This document shows, piece after piece, positions 48,387 through 55,067 of a DNA stretch of 64,000 nucleotides. The DNA is taken from the NCBI GenBank assembly GCA_017630405.1, contig JAGBVH010000025.1:12352-76351 (forward strand), read 5' to 3'. The DNA comes from Alphaproteobacteria bacterium. GTDB lineage: Bacteria; Pseudomonadota; Alphaproteobacteria; Rs-D84. A model generated the notes under the pieces. The model searched no databases, was not told the origin of the DNA, and worked only from the letters and a program-made list of their open reading frames with translations. Position numbers and translations under genes: made by a program. Within the stretch, counting starts at the first letter, position 1, and each line of letters opens with the position of its first letter.

Positions 48387-49217
48387 TTATTCGCAGTTTA
48401 AATCTTTCTTAACAGCATCGTATATTGTTTTGACTTGACTACAACCAGTCTCCCATTTATCGGCGCACACTGTTTTCAAATCACAAATTGCGGTTCTATG
48501 ACTTTCATAATCTTTATCTTTGCTTGTTCTCAATTCTTCAAGCCTTGACTTAAACAAGTCAGTTCCAGACAATGCTTTTTGGCCCATAACCTTATCGCCA
48601 AATATTTTATTTCCGCCCGCTTCCATCAAACCAAAACCAAGCCCCGCAGACGCAACAGTCGCGCCAACAGTTCCCCATACACGACCAGACTTCTTGGCAT
48701 CTAAAATACGTTGTTCCATTTCTTCATCAGAAACCCATCCACCACATTTAATCGGATCGCGATTCCATTCAAAGTATTTAGCACTTACACCTGACATATC
48801 AATTCTTGGGTCATTAGTGCGAATCTCGACCTTAATAAAGCAGGTATTATTTTCTGGATTAACAAAATCCTCTACCATTGTGGCATAGTCACTTGTGTCA
48901 CTGTTACGCGATGCCCAAACATATGTGTTGCCAACGCCAATATTATTGGCCAAGCAAGCCTCTTTTTCCTTTTGACGAATATCTTTATCAGCAGGCAACA
49001 TTTCTTCTGGGGTCACCGCCAAGGCCGCCTTTTCTGCCGCTGATTCCGCATCTGTATTTTTCGCTGCCATTGCATTTAACTGATTTTTTGATGCAACCGC
49101 GCGCGGTGCCGCCATTACCATCTGGGACGACATAGAACGGCGTGATGTATCAGGCGCGGCATTTGCAATCCCCACAAAACAGACCATCCCCATCAAAAAT
49201 ACGATTGATTTCGACAT
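48387..49217 (-). CDS. Secreted hypothetical protein with Cys pairs and a Gly-zipper-like segment
   Basis: Signal ending ANA; WGTVGATVASAGLGFG hydrophobic segment. Confidence 0.75.
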   Translation of the reverse strand: MSKSIVFLMGMVCFVGIANAAPDTSRRSMSSQMVMAAPRAVASKNQLNAMAAKNTDAESAAEKAALAVTPEEMLPADKDIRQKEKEACLANNIGVGNTYVWASRNSDTSDYATMVEDFVNPENNTCFIKVEIRTNDPRIDMSGVSAKYFEWNRDPIKCGGWVSDEEMEQRILDAKKSGRVWGTVGATVASAGLGFGLMEAGGNKIFGDKVMGQKALSGTDLFKSRLEELRTSKDKDYESHRTAICDLKTVCADKWETGCSQVKTIYDAVKKDLNCE

Positions 49218-50230: not shown

Positions 50231-50295
50231 ATTGCGTAAACGCAAATAATTTAGTGCGCCCGTCGGCGCACTTTTTGTCGTTTTGTATTTTTATT

Positions 50296-50565
50296 TTAAT
50301 CAATCCAAATAAAGGCATGCCCTTCTGGCAATTCACCTTGAGGCCTTTTCAACGAAATTGTATCAAAGCGTCTGTCGCTCAAATCAACCTTGCCGTCCAA
50401 TTTCTCATTAAATTCTTTCTTAACAGCTTCTAATTTTTCCGATGTATATTCAACACTTGCCACATGTGGAACCAAAACTGTTGTCACCGCATCCTGACAA
50501 ATCGCAGGCCCAATCGCCGACACCATTAAGCACAAACAAAAAAACAAGCGTCCAATAACAGACAT
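50296..50565 (-). CDS. Small secreted fibre-family protein (C-terminal IWID)
   Basis: GGAGAG RBS; signal peptide; KLDGKVD...RFDTIS...PEGHAFIWID. Confidence 0.7.
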   Translation of the reverse strand: MSVIGRLFFCLCLMVSAIGPAICQDAVTTVLVPHVASVEYTSEKLEAVKKEFNEKLDGKVDLSDRRFDTISLKRPQGELPEGHAFIWID

Positions 50566-50646
50566 TATCTCTCCGTCCAAGATTCCTTTCATCAACATAT
50601 TAATATCACACTTCAAAGCAACACGCAAATCCAACCCACAACAAAT

Positions 50647-51636
50647 TTAAAATCTATATATTTTTACATAACTGACATCGCTGACATTCTGGACACCACT
50701 GCCACCGGCACCACCATTAACACCAACACCAACGCCCAACAATCCACCGGTCGAAACCGCGCCACCACCGCCACCACCATACGAAGTTATCGTCTGACCA
50801 CCACAGGACCACGATACATTCGCACCACCGGCACCACCCGTTGCGTTTGAAGAACCGAACAATCCGCCCATGGAACTGCTGCCGCCGTCGCCACCACCAC
50901 TATCTGTGGCATCAGCACCAACATTCCCGCGATACAGCAAACCAGATGCGGCTACACCACCACCACCACCAACGGCGCCACCGCCGCCACCACCACACCC
51001 AAGACCATCAGCACCCCATGCATCACCGCCCTTGGCCGCAACACCATCTGTTCCCTGTTCAAAACTGCCGCCGCCGCCGGAACCACATTCTTGTTCAACC
51101 TTGCTACTGTTATATCCACCCTGACCCGCCCCACCGGCACCACCCTGGGACAAGACAAATTCATCACCAACCTGAAAGAAACTTGGTGCGCCCGATGCGC
51201 CACCACCACCGGCCGACATAACACCACTGCTGGCAGAATTTACACCACCCGCATTACCATCACCGCCGCGAAAAGCATAAACGGTTGTCGCCGTGTCAAT
51301 TGTAAAACTATAGATTTCTGGGGCAGCATCCTGACCATTACCTGTTCGACCACCACCATCGCCGCCACAACCGCCAAGAATCTCTACGGTATAACATCCC
51401 GGGCGCAACTCAATAGCCTCGCATGAATTCAAAGATGTTACTTCGTGATAAAGACTGGATTGCCCAACGGTGTACACAACACCATCTTTTTTAATTTTTA
51501 ATGAATCTGGACAACTACCCACCGATACAGGCGCATAATAAATGGCCCCCGTCTGATCTTTAATATTAAGGGCAAACTCAGTCGTCTTAACTGTATCAAC
51601 CGCTATTTGAAGATCAGCAACATTCAGAACTGGCAT
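50647..51636 (-). CDS. Glycine-rich beta-domain protein (tail-fibre/ALK-type Gly-rich), no signal peptide
   Basis: GCYTVEILGGCGG N-strand, many GGGGG/GGAGG turns, closing YVKIYRF strand. Confidence 0.8.
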   Translation of the reverse strand: MPVLNVADLQIAVDTVKTTEFALNIKDQTGAIYYAPVSVGSCPDSLKIKKDGVVYTVGQSSLYHEVTSLNSCEAIELRPGCYTVEILGGCGGDGGGRTGNGQDAAPEIYSFTIDTATTVYAFRGGDGNAGGVNSASSGVMSAGGGGASGAPSFFQVGDEFVLSQGGAGGAGQGGYNSSKVEQECGSGGGGSFEQGTDGVAAKGGDAWGADGLGCGGGGGGAVGGGGGVAASGLLYRGNVGADATDSGGGDGGSSSMGGLFGSSNATGGAGGANVSWSCGGQTITSYGGGGGGAVSTGGLLGVGVGVNGGAGGSGVQNVSDVSYVKIYRF

Positions 51637-51653
51637 TATCCACATCCTTAATA

Positions 51654-52130
51654 TCAATTAAACCAAATAAAAACCTGACCTTCAGGCGGGGTTCCGCTTG
51701 GTTCAGTTGTTGGCACCGTACTAAATCGAACATCATCAGCATCTGCCTTAGTATCCAATTTAGTATCTAGTTGTGTCTTGGTATAAATATCCGGCTTGTT
51801 CGCAATATAATCAGATGCAAATGGATCTGTCTGCTCCCAGTCCGGTGTCGTTACATTACCTCCAGACGAACCAAGAAAACTTTCAACATAGGATTTGTCA
51901 GCCTTGTTATCTAATTTATCATCAATTTCTGTCTTGGTATAAATATCTGGCTTGTTTGCGATATAATCGGACGCTGTTGAATCAGTTTGAGCCCAATTTG
52001 CCTGCTTTTGATTTATACTCGCAACAATGGCATCAACATAACTTTTACTGGCAATATTTGCGTGCGCAAAAGGCACGCACAAAACGGCGTTACAAATTAA
52101 CACCAGTAAAAATATTCGACGTGCTTTCAC
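51654..52130 (-). CDS. Secreted fibre-family protein with a duplicated tail-fibre repeat (C-terminal IWFN)
   Basis: AHA|NIASKSYVD; two copies of W-x-QTD-x-x-ASDYIANKPDIYTKT; ends PEGQVFIWFN. Confidence 0.8.
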   Translation of the reverse strand: MKARRIFLLVLICNAVLCVPFAHANIASKSYVDAIVASINQKQANWAQTDSTASDYIANKPDIYTKTEIDDKLDNKADKSYVESFLGSSGGNVTTPDWEQTDPFASDYIANKPDIYTKTQLDTKLDTKADADDVRFSTVPTTEPSGTPPEGQVFIWFN

Positions 52131-52156: not shown

Positions 52157-52186
52157 ATTATACCAAAAACACGCCCCCTATAGCAA
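52157..52186 (-). promoter_or_regulatory. Sigma70-type promoter for the 52130-50296 operon
   Basis: Minus strand TTGCTA-18-TATAAT. Confidence 0.65.
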
Positions 52187-52200
52187 GCGGCACACAGCGC

Positions 52201-52220
52201 AAAAAAAAAAAAAAAAAAAA
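52201..52220. repeat. A20 homopolymer (T20 on the transcribed sense strand) just upstream of the -35
   Basis: Twenty consecutive A; the longest run seen in the window. Confidence 0.9.
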
Positions 52221-52321: not shown

Positions 52322-52390
52322 TCAGAATGATTTAGATGTGGAACGGTCCCGACAACGTAGTGTACTTAACGCTACATGAGTTGTCGGCCG
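52322..52390 (+). repeat. Structured repeat family, copy 4
   Basis: TCAGAATGATTTAGA...CCGACAAC-GTAGTGTACTTAACGCTAC-ATGA-GTTGTCGG. Confidence 0.88.
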
Positions 52391-52416
52391 CCCCCCTTGC
52401 TTGTCGAAAAAATAAA

Positions 52417-52506
52417 TTAGAATGATTTAGATAAAAACAAATCGGGCATTGTAGTGTACAAGCGCTACATGAGATGCCCGATTTGTTTTTAGATGAATTA
52501 TTATAA
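52417..52506 (+). repeat. Structured repeat family, copy 5 (full length)
   Basis: TTAGAATGATTTAGA-TAAAAACAAATCGGGCAT...GTAGTGTACAAGCGCTACATGAG-ATGCCCGATTTGTTTTTA-GATGAATTATTATAA. Confidence 0.9.
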
Positions 52507-52512
52507 TTTATT

Positions 52513-54141
52513 TTAGTTGAGAGGTGCACCCCAATGCTGTTGAATAGTGCGTTCCGAATCCATCGGACTAATCAGAACCTGCGGAGTCAGGATAACAACC
52601 AAAACTTCGCGTGCCGCCTTGGTTTCACGAGAACCAGACAAAGCCATAAAGTCAGGATCGCCAAGACCATAACGAGTATCTTGATTTGTCTGTTTTTCAA
52701 ATCCAGATACAACTAACATTTGGCCTGATTCCATAATTACTTCCTGCATAAAACTACGTTCTTCAACTTCTGGCAACTGCAGCGTCACTTCACCAATTGT
52801 CTGGGTTGACATACGCAACAATTCACGCACAGACATACGGAACAACAACAGGATTTTGCCGTTTTCCAAAACATTTGGCAACAACTGCATTGTGAAACCT
52901 GTTTCCAAATCGTCCTGATCAACGGTACTTGATTCAACCGTTGTAAAATTACGCGATTCAAAACGTTTGATATAGCCGGTTGTACGAGTGTTGCTGACTG
53001 GCGCGACACGATTACTGCGAGTGGTCACACCCACATTTGTCACCAAGGACACCTTGCCCTGCTTAGCCAAAGCCTCGATAAGCGCGCTGCTGCCAGCCGC
53101 ACCTGACAAAGAACCATTCATAATCTGGTCATTGGTATATGCACCTTCAACCAAAGAACCATTTTCCATATGTGTCGCACCTGTCAAAGCCGAAACCGTA
53201 TTTGACAGAACCGCGATATTCATAGAACTTGCCTCGGTCGAAGCCAAATTATTCTTTGGATTGGCAACAATATTCAGTCCAGATGTGGAATTAATCGCCG
53301 CCGCCAAATTCAAACCAAACGCAGAATCATTAGAAATCGTAACCTGTAATACCTTTACATCAATTGTCACCAACTGGGACAGACGCTTGTTTTGACGATC
53401 AATGTATTCACTGATACGCGACAGAACCGATGGTGATGCGGTCACAGTAATCGTACCCAAACTGCGTGACACCGTGAAATTAGCATTTGAATTTTTACCT
53501 ATAATAGAAGAGATAGCACCTTCAACTTCGTCCCACTCTTTCAAAGTGGATTCCAAAGACACCTGATTACCATCATCCGTTGAAACCGCGGTTTGATATG
53601 CGACCTCGGTCCCCAGGGCATACAATGCAAATGTTCTTGTTTCTGTTTCATAGAACACAATCGAGTTTTTATCATAATACCACAGCAAATCTAAATCTGT
53701 CGCAACCTGAGATAACAAACCAGACAGTTTACCAGTATAGGCAACATTAATTGCCTTTCTTAACTTTTCATCAGAAACCTGACCATCAATTTTTACAGGA
53801 ATACCAGTAATTGAATAAACATCATTTGCAAACACCTGTAATGAGACAGGTTCATTTAATAATAATGTAACACCTGTATCTGTTTCAAACTGTGCTGGCA
53901 AATTATTACGATGTTCCAACACAATTGATTTATTACCCAACCAAACACCCTCGGACATAGAAACAGTGTCACTGCTGGCAACCTTGGCGCGTGGATTCTT
54001 GGCCATTTCAAACGCATCATAGGCATTGATAAAATCCTGATCCACAGATGCCGCAACCTTGGCTGATTCTTGCTTGGCACAACCAACCAGCGCGACACAA
54101 GCCAAAGTACAAACAAACAAGTTTCTGATTGTTTTTTTCAT
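52513..54141 (-). CDS. Type IVb pilus secretin, PilN/BfpB-like lipoprotein
   Basis: Lipobox LVGC; N-domain DLLWYYD...ETRTF; ITVTASPSVL; QLVTIDVKVL; ESGQMLVVSGFE; VVILTP. Confidence 0.85.
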   Translation of the reverse strand: MKKTIRNLFVCTLACVALVGCAKQESAKVAASVDQDFINAYDAFEMAKNPRAKVASSDTVSMSEGVWLGNKSIVLEHRNNLPAQFETDTGVTLLLNEPVSLQVFANDVYSITGIPVKIDGQVSDEKLRKAINVAYTGKLSGLLSQVATDLDLLWYYDKNSIVFYETETRTFALYALGTEVAYQTAVSTDDGNQVSLESTLKEWDEVEGAISSIIGKNSNANFTVSRSLGTITVTASPSVLSRISEYIDRQNKRLSQLVTIDVKVLQVTISNDSAFGLNLAAAINSTSGLNIVANPKNNLASTEASSMNIAVLSNTVSALTGATHMENGSLVEGAYTNDQIMNGSLSGAAGSSALIEALAKQGKVSLVTNVGVTTRSNRVAPVSNTRTTGYIKRFESRNFTTVESSTVDQDDLETGFTMQLLPNVLENGKILLLFRMSVRELLRMSTQTIGEVTLQLPEVEERSFMQEVIMESGQMLVVSGFEKQTNQDTRYGLGDPDFMALSGSRETKAAREVLVVILTPQVLISPMDSERTIQQHWGAPLN

Positions 54142-54167: not shown

Positions 54168-55067
54168 TTATTCTTCGTTTGTAGAAATTACCAACACTCT
54201 ATTACCTTTATAGAACTTTGCATATGGGATTGGTGTCGCACGCCCAAAGTTACGAACCAACGCAGAAGCCACATCAACAAAGCGTCCTTTAAACACAGCA
54301 CTGGCTTCGACTGGATATTCACGTGATGTTGCCCATACCAAATCCCAGCCTTCTTTATTGCACCAGTTCTGTAAAACTTCACGCAAGGTCTGACCATTTG
54401 CCACAACCCAAGAACGAACCTGATCAGTCAGAACAGCTGGCGCTTCCGCATCAGCTGAAACATCAACCGCGATTTCTGTTTCTTCTACCTCGACCGCTTC
54501 AGGTTTTTCTGTCTTCATACCCATTCTGACTGCAAACGCTTCATAACCATCGGCATATTTGCCACAATTTTTACGACCGCTGCGCGATACAGCCAGAACA
54601 TTACCACCATCATCTTCTAAAACCTCGCGATGCAACAAAGGCATTTCGGACTCATTTGCGCATTCATCATCGAACCCAACAGGAATCTGAGTACCATGCA
54701 ACATATTCGCGCCACCAGACCAACCACCAAAATCACCACGCGCCCCCAGATTGATATTATTTTCAACCACCAAATCCGCACCTATTTTGGAAACGATGCG
54801 AATATTATCGGACTTGTCACAGTCTGTGCATTCCACTTCCCTACATTCAACCTCGGCCGCGGCATCCGAACCTGCAATTGGCCACGCTGGCACCTCTGGC
54901 ATTTGGGCGACTTCGTCCTCTACCTGATAAACATCCACATCATCGCGGACAAATTTTTCCTGTTCATAGAACACTTCTGATGTGACAACCTGTGGCAAAG
55001 TTTCAGCCGCAAAGCAATAGCCAGCAGCCGTTGCGAACATCGCTACAATCAAAATCTTGCGAAACAT
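54168..55067 (-). CDS. TcpQ/PilL-like type IVb pilus protein
   Basis: Signal peptide; C-terminal WVVANGQTLREVLQNWC...W.LVW...YP...FYKGNRVLVI TcpQ-type domain; start at MFRKIL. Confidence 0.75.
   Translation of the reverse strand: MFRKILIVAMFATAAGYCFAAETLPQVVTSEVFYEQEKFVRDDVDVYQVEDEVAQMPEVPAWPIAGSDAAAEVECREVECTDCDKSDNIRIVSKIGADLVVENNINLGARGDFGGWSGGANMLHGTQIPVGFDDECANESEMPLLHREVLEDDGGNVLAVSRSGRKNCGKYADGYEAFAVRMGMKTEKPEAVEVEETEIAVDVSADAEAPAVLTDQVRSWVVANGQTLREVLQNWCNKEGWDLVWATSREYPVEASAVFKGRFVDVASALVRNFGRATPIPYAKFYKGNRVLVISTNEE

Follow-up and report, generated by a model that had tools for sequence, protein, structure and literature searches.

The long tail fibres of T2-, T6- and S16-type phages end in a gp37 trimer with a separately encoded adhesin, gp38, which is attached by its N-terminal domain to the distal end of the shaft (PMC12032242, citing Dunne et al. 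2018). In the cellular world, Bdellovibrio bacteriovorus makes mosaic adhesive trimer (MAT) fibres, single chains in which a beta-rich N-terminal domain of ~130 amino acids (aa) follows the signal peptide (PMC10769870); this common N-terminal element is presumed to bind the cell surface (PMC10769870). Sec export also applies to TcpF and CofJ, whose genes neighbour those for type IVb pili and whose export signal, at the mature N terminus, has an aromatic residue that is critical (PMC10120004, PMC6048534, PMC9565799). Here we compare with these systems a minus-strand operon of three genes, termed shaft, head and small gene, found in 64,000 nucleotides (nt) of DNA (hereafter the window; assembly GCA_017630405.1, contig JAGBVH010000025.1) from a metagenome-assembled genome of Candidatus Enterousia, a gut alphaproteobacterium of the order Rs-D84. 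The evidence balances about evenly on the reading that the operon encodes a two-part, phage-tail-fibre-like surface adhesin, in which the head would be docked on the conserved C-terminal segment of the shaft, here called the Trp tail.

In working principle, the gp37-gp38 tip is the closest of these systems. As in the phages, the shaft gene is immediately followed by a separate adhesin-type gene, with a gap of 17 nt in this operon and of 2-34 nt in related loci, and, as in gp38, conserved glycine-rich motifs alternate with variable segments along the head, and alleles are shuffled between relatives. Unlike gp38, which combines a beta-helix with a polyglycine sandwich, the head has a predicted TNF-like plus glycine-rich (TG) domain; no gp38 chain was found among its fold matches in the PDB, the head had no PHROG match, and neither shaft nor head had a tblastn match in 50,697 phage records. 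The genes also belong to a cellular chromosome, the shaft is made with a Sec signal peptide, and the attachment of the head is here one that we infer. The Bdellovibrio MAT fibres are the nearest described cellular use of phage-fibre parts. Shared with them are Sec export of a cellular fibre built from phage-fibre-like parts, a common N-terminal element, exchangeable C-terminal tips and several paralogues per genome, and the MAT-bearing organism likewise must attach to other cells. Unlike in MAT fibres, the common N-terminal element spans only ~9 residues, the proteins are far shorter (158 aa for the shaft) and the tip is a separate polypeptide. Like TcpF and CofJ, the shaft has a Sec signal peptide, and it carries a conserved motif at the mature N terminus; of type IVb pilus genes, only a secretin gene and a TcpQ gene are adjacent, and the proteins are fibre-like, not globular. 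What is new in the present locus is that shaft and head are encoded separately, that the Trp tail is conserved, that the head has lost its signal peptide across the lineage, and that alleles have been exchanged between conspecific strains.

To our knowledge, nothing has been reported on how Candidatus Enterousia or other Rs-D84 bacteria attach to cells. Their genomes are smaller than 1 Mb, and a partner-dependent lifestyle is predicted for them (PMC12306168). A fibre operon that is kept in so small a genome and swapped like a phage receptor-binding cassette would be a concrete candidate for an attachment and partner-recognition device. The TG domain, as a stand-alone exchangeable head beside a separate shaft, could also offer a simple system for studies of target binding. 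We know of no study of the microbial form of this domain, widespread as it is.

In the proposed two-part adhesin, the first gene would supply a Sec-exported, probably trimeric shaft of phage-fibre modules that ends in the near-invariant Trp tail, and the motif at its mature N terminus (the N-motif) would serve attachment or export, possibly via the neighbouring type IVb secretin. The second gene would supply the binding head, formed by a small N-terminal beta domain and the TG domain, which would dock on the Trp tail; there, the first strand of the head might pair with that of the tail. Strains could then exchange the length of the shaft and the allele of the head independently of each other. 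The third gene would be a minimal, shaft-less version of the first that bears the same tail. We infer trimer formation, tail-head docking, surface location and an adhesin role from the observations that follow, and adhesion to partner cells would be the most likely role. The first-pass annotation of the window had proposed a modular fibre with stalk, adaptor and tip parts. Its stalk and tip held up, given a Sec-exported fibre family, a head fold and a conserved adjacent gene pair; its adaptor did not, as the third gene is better read as a shaft-less paralogue.

The pairing of shaft and head genes was examined in 35 loci gathered from the head side (species-representative genomes) and five more gathered from the tail side (metagenomes). 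The window and 17 loci from related genomes or strains (L005, L008, L011-L018, L033, L039, L041, L042, L048, L049 and L053) each have a head gene preceded, at a distance of 2-34 nt, by a Trp-tailed gene. The pair is kept where the upstream neighbour has changed, with FtsK in place of the secretin in L008 and an unrelated 366-aa gene in L014, and where the downstream genes differ (L011, L033, L041 and L042). The third gene is absent from L005 and stands alone in L046 and L047; the conserved unit is therefore the shaft-head pair and not a triad, and the three-gene order that had been expected to be conserved is replaced by a conserved two-gene order. The content of the site between the secretin gene and rpsT varies, with no fewer than four arrangements: the pair with the small gene, the pair by itself, a lone shaft gene and a lone small gene. 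In distant paralogous loci, where head genes occur in tandem pairs, a Trp-tailed gene was found 84 nt downstream in L031, upstream in L039 and 1.7 kb away, on the downstream side, in L026.

The 158-aa shaft consists of a signal peptide (residues 1-24, ..PFAHA|NIAS), the N-motif NIASKSYVD at residues 25-33, two modules and the tail. Each module follows the pattern DWxQTD..DYIANKPDIYTKT, and the duplication that the first-pass annotation had reported is real: residues 43-84 and 95-136 are identical at 27 of 42 positions. As also reported there, the N-motif is shared. In four proteins of the window (12147, 12499, 13796 and the shaft, 51654) it comes after the signal peptide, with the general form [DNE][IV]A[SG]xx[YW]V[DN]. 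The modules gave weak PHROG matches (phrog_5004, 1.4e-5; phrog_12519, 1.5e-4; a tail-fibre PHROG, 0.024) and also occur in the signal-less fibre-like proteins P0011-P0013, together with GLSTNDYT-type repeats. In a database of 5.8 billion proteins, 10 close relatives of the shaft are built like it, from a signal peptide, the N-motif, at least one module and the tail, and their C termini follow the family pattern ..KADxDDVRFxTIPTxxPSGTPPxGQVFIWFN.

The Trp tail, with the pattern ..DDVRFxTxPTxxPxGTPPxGQVFIWFN, is the most conserved part of the shaft-head pair: D, R, F, P, P, G and W are invariant, and among 14 sequences the mean pairwise identity reaches 0.74 in the tail, as against 0.52-0.57 in the head and 0.27 in the remainder of the mature shaft. 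In the loci from genomes, this tail terminates proteins of 106-526 aa with entirely different middles, some of which carry SGTVAYGRLPVG-type or TGDYATNTAL-type repeats. These comparisons support the assignment of the shaft to a Sec-exported, phage-fibre-like family with very variable length and a constant Trp tail; the shaft is probably a trimer. It ends 27 residues past its last repeat; the YadA-type C-terminal beta-barrel anchor of trimeric autotransporter adhesins is absent, and the shaft matched no Pfam or NCBIfam family. Export by Tat was considered on account of KARRIFLL in the signal peptide and was discarded, the RR not being conserved in relatives.

The 329-aa head begins Met-Pro, has an in-frame TAA just upstream of its longest open reading frame (ORF) and has no signal peptide, in line with the first-pass description of a signal-less, Gly-rich protein. 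AlphaFold2, run on a 46-sequence family alignment (A2), gave a confident model, with a predicted local distance difference test (pLDDT) score of 92.4 and a predicted template modelling (pTM) score of 0.83. The modelled head comprises an extra N-terminal beta domain (residues ~1-66) and a domain of the TG class, with a TNF-like and a glycine-rich (polyglycine-type) part. Foldseek against the PDB placed ALK/LTK TG or GRD chains at all of ranks 1-21 (including 7n00, 7mzy, 7nx0, 7nx1 and 7ls0), with E values of 1.7e-4 to 1e-3 and probabilities of 0.97-1.0, and the first match beyond the ALK/LTK chains had E=0.36. The ALK/LTK TG domain (Pfam PF12810, PF21722) is thus the only significant fold match of the model; compared with it, the head has the extra ~66-residue N-terminal beta domain and is a stand-alone protein, not the end of a longer chain. 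Against predicted viral structures, Foldseek returned phage glycine-rich-domain proteins, mycobacteriophage minor tail proteins, one tail fibre and giant-virus collagen-like fibres, and in these viral matches the glycine-rich domain is on the same chain as the fibre. In the head model, DSSP assigned the Gly runs to neither helix nor strand, which is compatible with, and not diagnostic of, polyglycine-II helices.

An initial search found 48 relatives of the head. The family is small and lineage-restricted: an exhaustive profile search recovered only 62 cluster representatives at E<1e-10 among 1.84 billion. Strongly conserved in it is the N terminus, MP[VA][IL]x[IV]xDxQ, and C72 and C278 are invariant. 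Classical signal peptides occur in homologues from other lineages (P0070, P0077, P0078, P0046-P0049, P0055 and the protein of L037), and their cleavage site falls immediately ahead of the strand that begins the Enterousia heads. The family is therefore extracytoplasmic in the other lineages; its signal peptide has been lost throughout the Enterousia lineage, as far as the loci seen show, which raises the question of export.

Divergent paralogues of the head occur in L019-L031, L036, L040, L044 and L045 as tandem pairs of ~335 aa and ~325 aa. The second copy lacks the first two strands, and the metagenome-assembled genome SIG46 has up to six such loci. Directly after head or Trp-tailed genes, L031 (8551-10593), L041 (7181-9058) and L042 (7034-9472) encode a Cys-rich exported protein of 625-812 aa with CxxC-type repeats, e.g., GYSCPAYKKYTSCNAGYYLNG.

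Comparison of the window with L005, a conspecific locus, revealed a mosaic. The SufB, TcpQ, secretin, RpsT, PlsY, DprA and DnaA proteins are 99-100% identical, and the shaft is 85% and the head only 64% identical, a head divergence equal to that from species whose housekeeping proteins are only 69-90% identical. At the DNA level, positions 51969-51610, covering the 3' two-thirds of the shaft gene, the tail, the junction and the first head codons, match at 357 of 360 sites; the body of the head gene is ~65-70% identical, and the 5' part of the shaft gene with the promoter region is <50% identical. The third gene, absent from L005, differs between the two by an insertion or deletion with sharp edges. 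In L053, the window's signal peptide and N terminus are joined to a single module in a 106-aa shaft with a slightly different tail, and the head is 99% identical. Such a pattern points to cassette-type exchange at the shaft-head locus and is typical of receptor-binding proteins.

Docking of the head on the Trp tail is suggested because the two genes are paired and the tail and the first residues of the head are extremely conserved, and also because the tail-junction block is identical within the mosaic and the viral domain stands at the end of fibre chains. A structural model was built from L013, in which shaft and head lie in frame, by reading the two intervening stops as residues, so that a single chain ran from the final 50 residues of the shaft through an 8-residue linker into the head. 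Its alignment (A4) combined L013 with three further natural junctions that are in frame, 34 heads and 10 tails. In this pseudo-fusion, the tail strand (47-54) pairs with the first strand of the head (57-64) at pLDDT 57-66, and residues 1-30 score <50. This low-confidence pairing bears on the first-pass idea that the terminal Trp strand may be an assembly signal. An earlier pseudo-complex, based on a head-TAA-small-protein read-through in the window (alignment A3), was dropped, as MAFFT had put the tails on the C-terminal strand of the head. That alignment (window 50647-50700 and 51657-51700) placed the tail segment PSGTPPxGQVFIWFN on GSTGTSxxSYVRIYRF of the head, and both are an aromatic-rich alternating strand after a Gly/Ser/Thr/Pro stretch.

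A more specific form of docking, which we regard as improbable, would be a split beta-hairpin joint. GQVFIWFN of the shaft and MPVLNVAD of the head would pair in trans, with three heads per shaft trimer, and export of the signal-less head to the surface would follow a route undescribed for such proteins, possibly one through the adjacent type IVb secretin machine. If this were true, heads and shafts would be freely exchangeable cassettes on a constant joint, giving an obligately partner-dependent bacterium a cellular modular system of receptor recognition, with a new kind of fibre joint and an export step still to be explained.

Several observations weigh against the two-part adhesin. The main objection is topological: the head lacks a signal peptide in every Enterousia-type locus seen, the shaft is Sec-exported, and no known route would join them. 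Co-export of the head with the shaft, as the first-pass annotation had supposed for the tip, is not possible by Sec because the shaft passes Sec unfolded. Recoding that fuses shaft and head was likewise rejected, since the gap of 2-34 nt falls in all three frames across loci. Many tandem head-gene loci have no Trp-tailed neighbour, and Trp-tailed genes without an adjacent head occur in L050 (a shaft, then rpsT), L046 and L047 (the small gene alone) and L052. In the pseudo-fusion, the 8-residue linker could force a hairpin, and the pLDDT at the junction is low. The TM-scores between head and ALK are only 0.25-0.29, at 14-18% sequence identity. Pfam gave no family for the head at E<=0.1, with weak PF21722 matches in 6 of 46 family members (best E=0.0093), and a sequence search of the head against the PDB gave no match. 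No RNA runs containing this stretch were found, and the literature yielded no experimental work on any family member.

The same unpaired genes lend something to a rather unlikely alternative, in which the Trp tail is an autonomous fibre element, either for trimerisation or capping like the fibritin foldon or as an anchoring or sorting signal, and the head is a separate protein that merely occupies the same variable locus. With a signal peptide on the shaft and none on the head, the two may never meet, and the tail contains a foldon-like core, P-x-[DE]-G-Q-x-[YF]-[VI]. However, the 2-34-nt pairing has survived altered flanks and altered gene order, in the window as in 17 other loci, and homology with the foldon was rejected. 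The local alignment with the T4 fibritin foldon reduced to PRDGQAYV against PPEGQVFI, the similarity was not significant (the window tail gave a shuffle p of 0.05, and the best p was 0.009), the tail has no counterpart of the foldon's second hairpin strand, and its profile matched no foldon chain in the PDB. Another explanation, doubtful in our view, takes the shaft and the other N-motif proteins as type IVb pilus exoproteins: after Sec, a minor pilin would recognise the mature N-motif, and exit would be through the PilN/TcpQ secretin, as for TcpF and CofJ. It concerns the exit route and is compatible with the two-part adhesin. In most loci, the genes immediately upstream are those for the secretin and TcpQ, an isolated TcpA-like pilin gene (37493-37957, minus strand, 154 aa; 8uhf_A, E=2.6e-4) lies between rluA-like and uvrC genes, 14 kb from the secretin gene, and four exported fibre proteins share an aromatic-bearing motif at the mature N terminus, the segment that in TcpF is the export signal, with Tyr5 critical (PMC10120004). 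However, no assembly ATPase, platform or minor pilin was seen within the 64-kb window. The secretin gene is itself 382 nt away, with repeats and the operon's own promoter in between, its linkage is lost in L008 and L014, and the housekeeping genes are syntenic too, so that the adjacency may be inherited gene order.

A cytoplasmic role for the head, as a dedicated chaperone that holds the Trp tail before export in the manner of T4 gp38 and tail-fibre assembly proteins, is very unlikely. Its missing signal peptide, the position of its gene immediately downstream of a fibre gene, as for tail-fibre assembly genes, and the conserved tail would all suit it, and in T4 itself gp38 is a chaperone (PMC12032242). 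A chaperone should not, however, differ by 36% between conspecific strains while the tail is identical; moreover, homologues elsewhere are Sec-exported, the fold is that of fibre-end and ligand-binding domains, and two Cys residues are invariant. Still less credible, and close to being dismissed, is a remnant of a prophage, tailocin or gene-transfer-agent tail-fibre module. The phage-type shaft modules, the phage-type head fold and a mosaic exchange like that of phage fibre genes would be expected of such a remnant. Against it stand the housekeeping flanks near the replication origin, with no phage structural genes nearby, the tblastn result against phage records given above, the Sec signal peptide of the shaft, and a pair that is intact across many species of a reduced-genome lineage.

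The small third gene encodes an 89-aa protein with a signal peptide, a degenerate N-motif (HVASVEYT, kept as RVASVEYT in P0068, its only homologue), a short helical stretch and a Trp tail ending in IWID. The C terminus that it had been said to share with the shaft was borne out: BLASTP aligned 18 identical residues over the last 42 (E=1e-11), and a hidden Markov model (HMM) of the tail built from other species matched the 89-aa protein at E=2e-8. The further claim that this tail matches the IWVE end of protein 12147 failed, with no HMM match at E<10 and no BLASTP alignment between that protein and the 89-aa protein; 12147 shares only the signal peptide and N-motif with the 158-aa shaft. With only two clusters in 5.8 billion proteins, the third gene is confined to very close relatives, where it is found with the pair in the strain group of the window and in L053. 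It lies beside rpsT in L046 and L047, with no trace of shaft or head. The third gene is a shaft-less paralogue of the shaft and not an adaptor.

All three ORFs of the fibre locus proposed at first pass are present on the minus strand, and independent gene callers agree on products of 158, 329 and 89 aa (Table 1). The alternative 336-aa ORF from TTG 51657 is in the same frame as the head gene, and a 112-aa ORF is in that of the small gene. In the window, the shaft and head frames are one base apart, with a TAA ahead of the head ORF. The three genes are predicted to form one transcription unit, from a promoter-like site that matches 10 of 12 consensus positions in a consensus scan, and as such is a consensus match only, to a terminator shared with rpsT.

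Table 1. Coordinates in the window of the operon, its predicted signals and the adjacent secretin genes.
Feature	Position	Strand	Description
TcpQ-domain protein	54168..55067	-	Secretin partner, context only; 299 aa; PF10671 1e-17
PilN-family type IVb secretin	52513..54141	-	Upstream neighbour, candidate outer-membrane exit; PF00263 2.3e-13; TIGR02520 4.3e-72, below its cut-off
T20 homopolymer	52201..52220	-	~14 nt ahead of the operon promoter's -35
Promoter-like site	52157..52186	-	TTGCTA-18-TATAAT with TG extension; 27 nt upstream of shaft start
Shaft gene (gene 1)	51654-52130	-	158 aa; GTG start preceded by GAGAGGGA
Trp tail	51657..51737	-	DDVRFSTVPTTEPSGTPPEGQVFIWFN; 27 C-terminal residues (132-158), most conserved part of the shaft-head pair
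Head gene (gene 2)	50647-51636	-	329 aa from ATG preceded by AAGGA; no signal peptide
Small gene (gene 3)	50296-50565	-	89 aa from ATG preceded by GGAG
G+C-rich hairpin	50253..50272	.	T runs on both strands; putative bidirectional terminator common to convergent rpsT

The surroundings of the operon are housekeeping genes near the replication origin: dnaA, dnaN, gyrB, dprA, rpsT, plsY, suf genes and gatCA. The 382-nt spacer between the secretin gene and the fibre operon contains repeat elements, the T20 tract and the promoter-like site. Two copies of a ~90-nt hairpin-forming repeat lie at 52322-52506, between the secretin stop and the fibre promoter, and one copy is retained in L047, where the fibre genes are absent. 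The T tract numbers 18 T in L001, 19 in L002 and 20 in the window, L003 and L004, in assemblies that are otherwise identical here; this variation in length may be expression-tuning slippage or a homopolymer assembly error. Beside plsY in all relatives is a gene (48387-49217, minus strand) for a secreted 276-aa protein, unassigned to a family. Its identity is 92% between the conspecific strains, against 99-100% for their flanks, and drops to 40-56% between species; this is a second fast-evolving exported protein at the locus.

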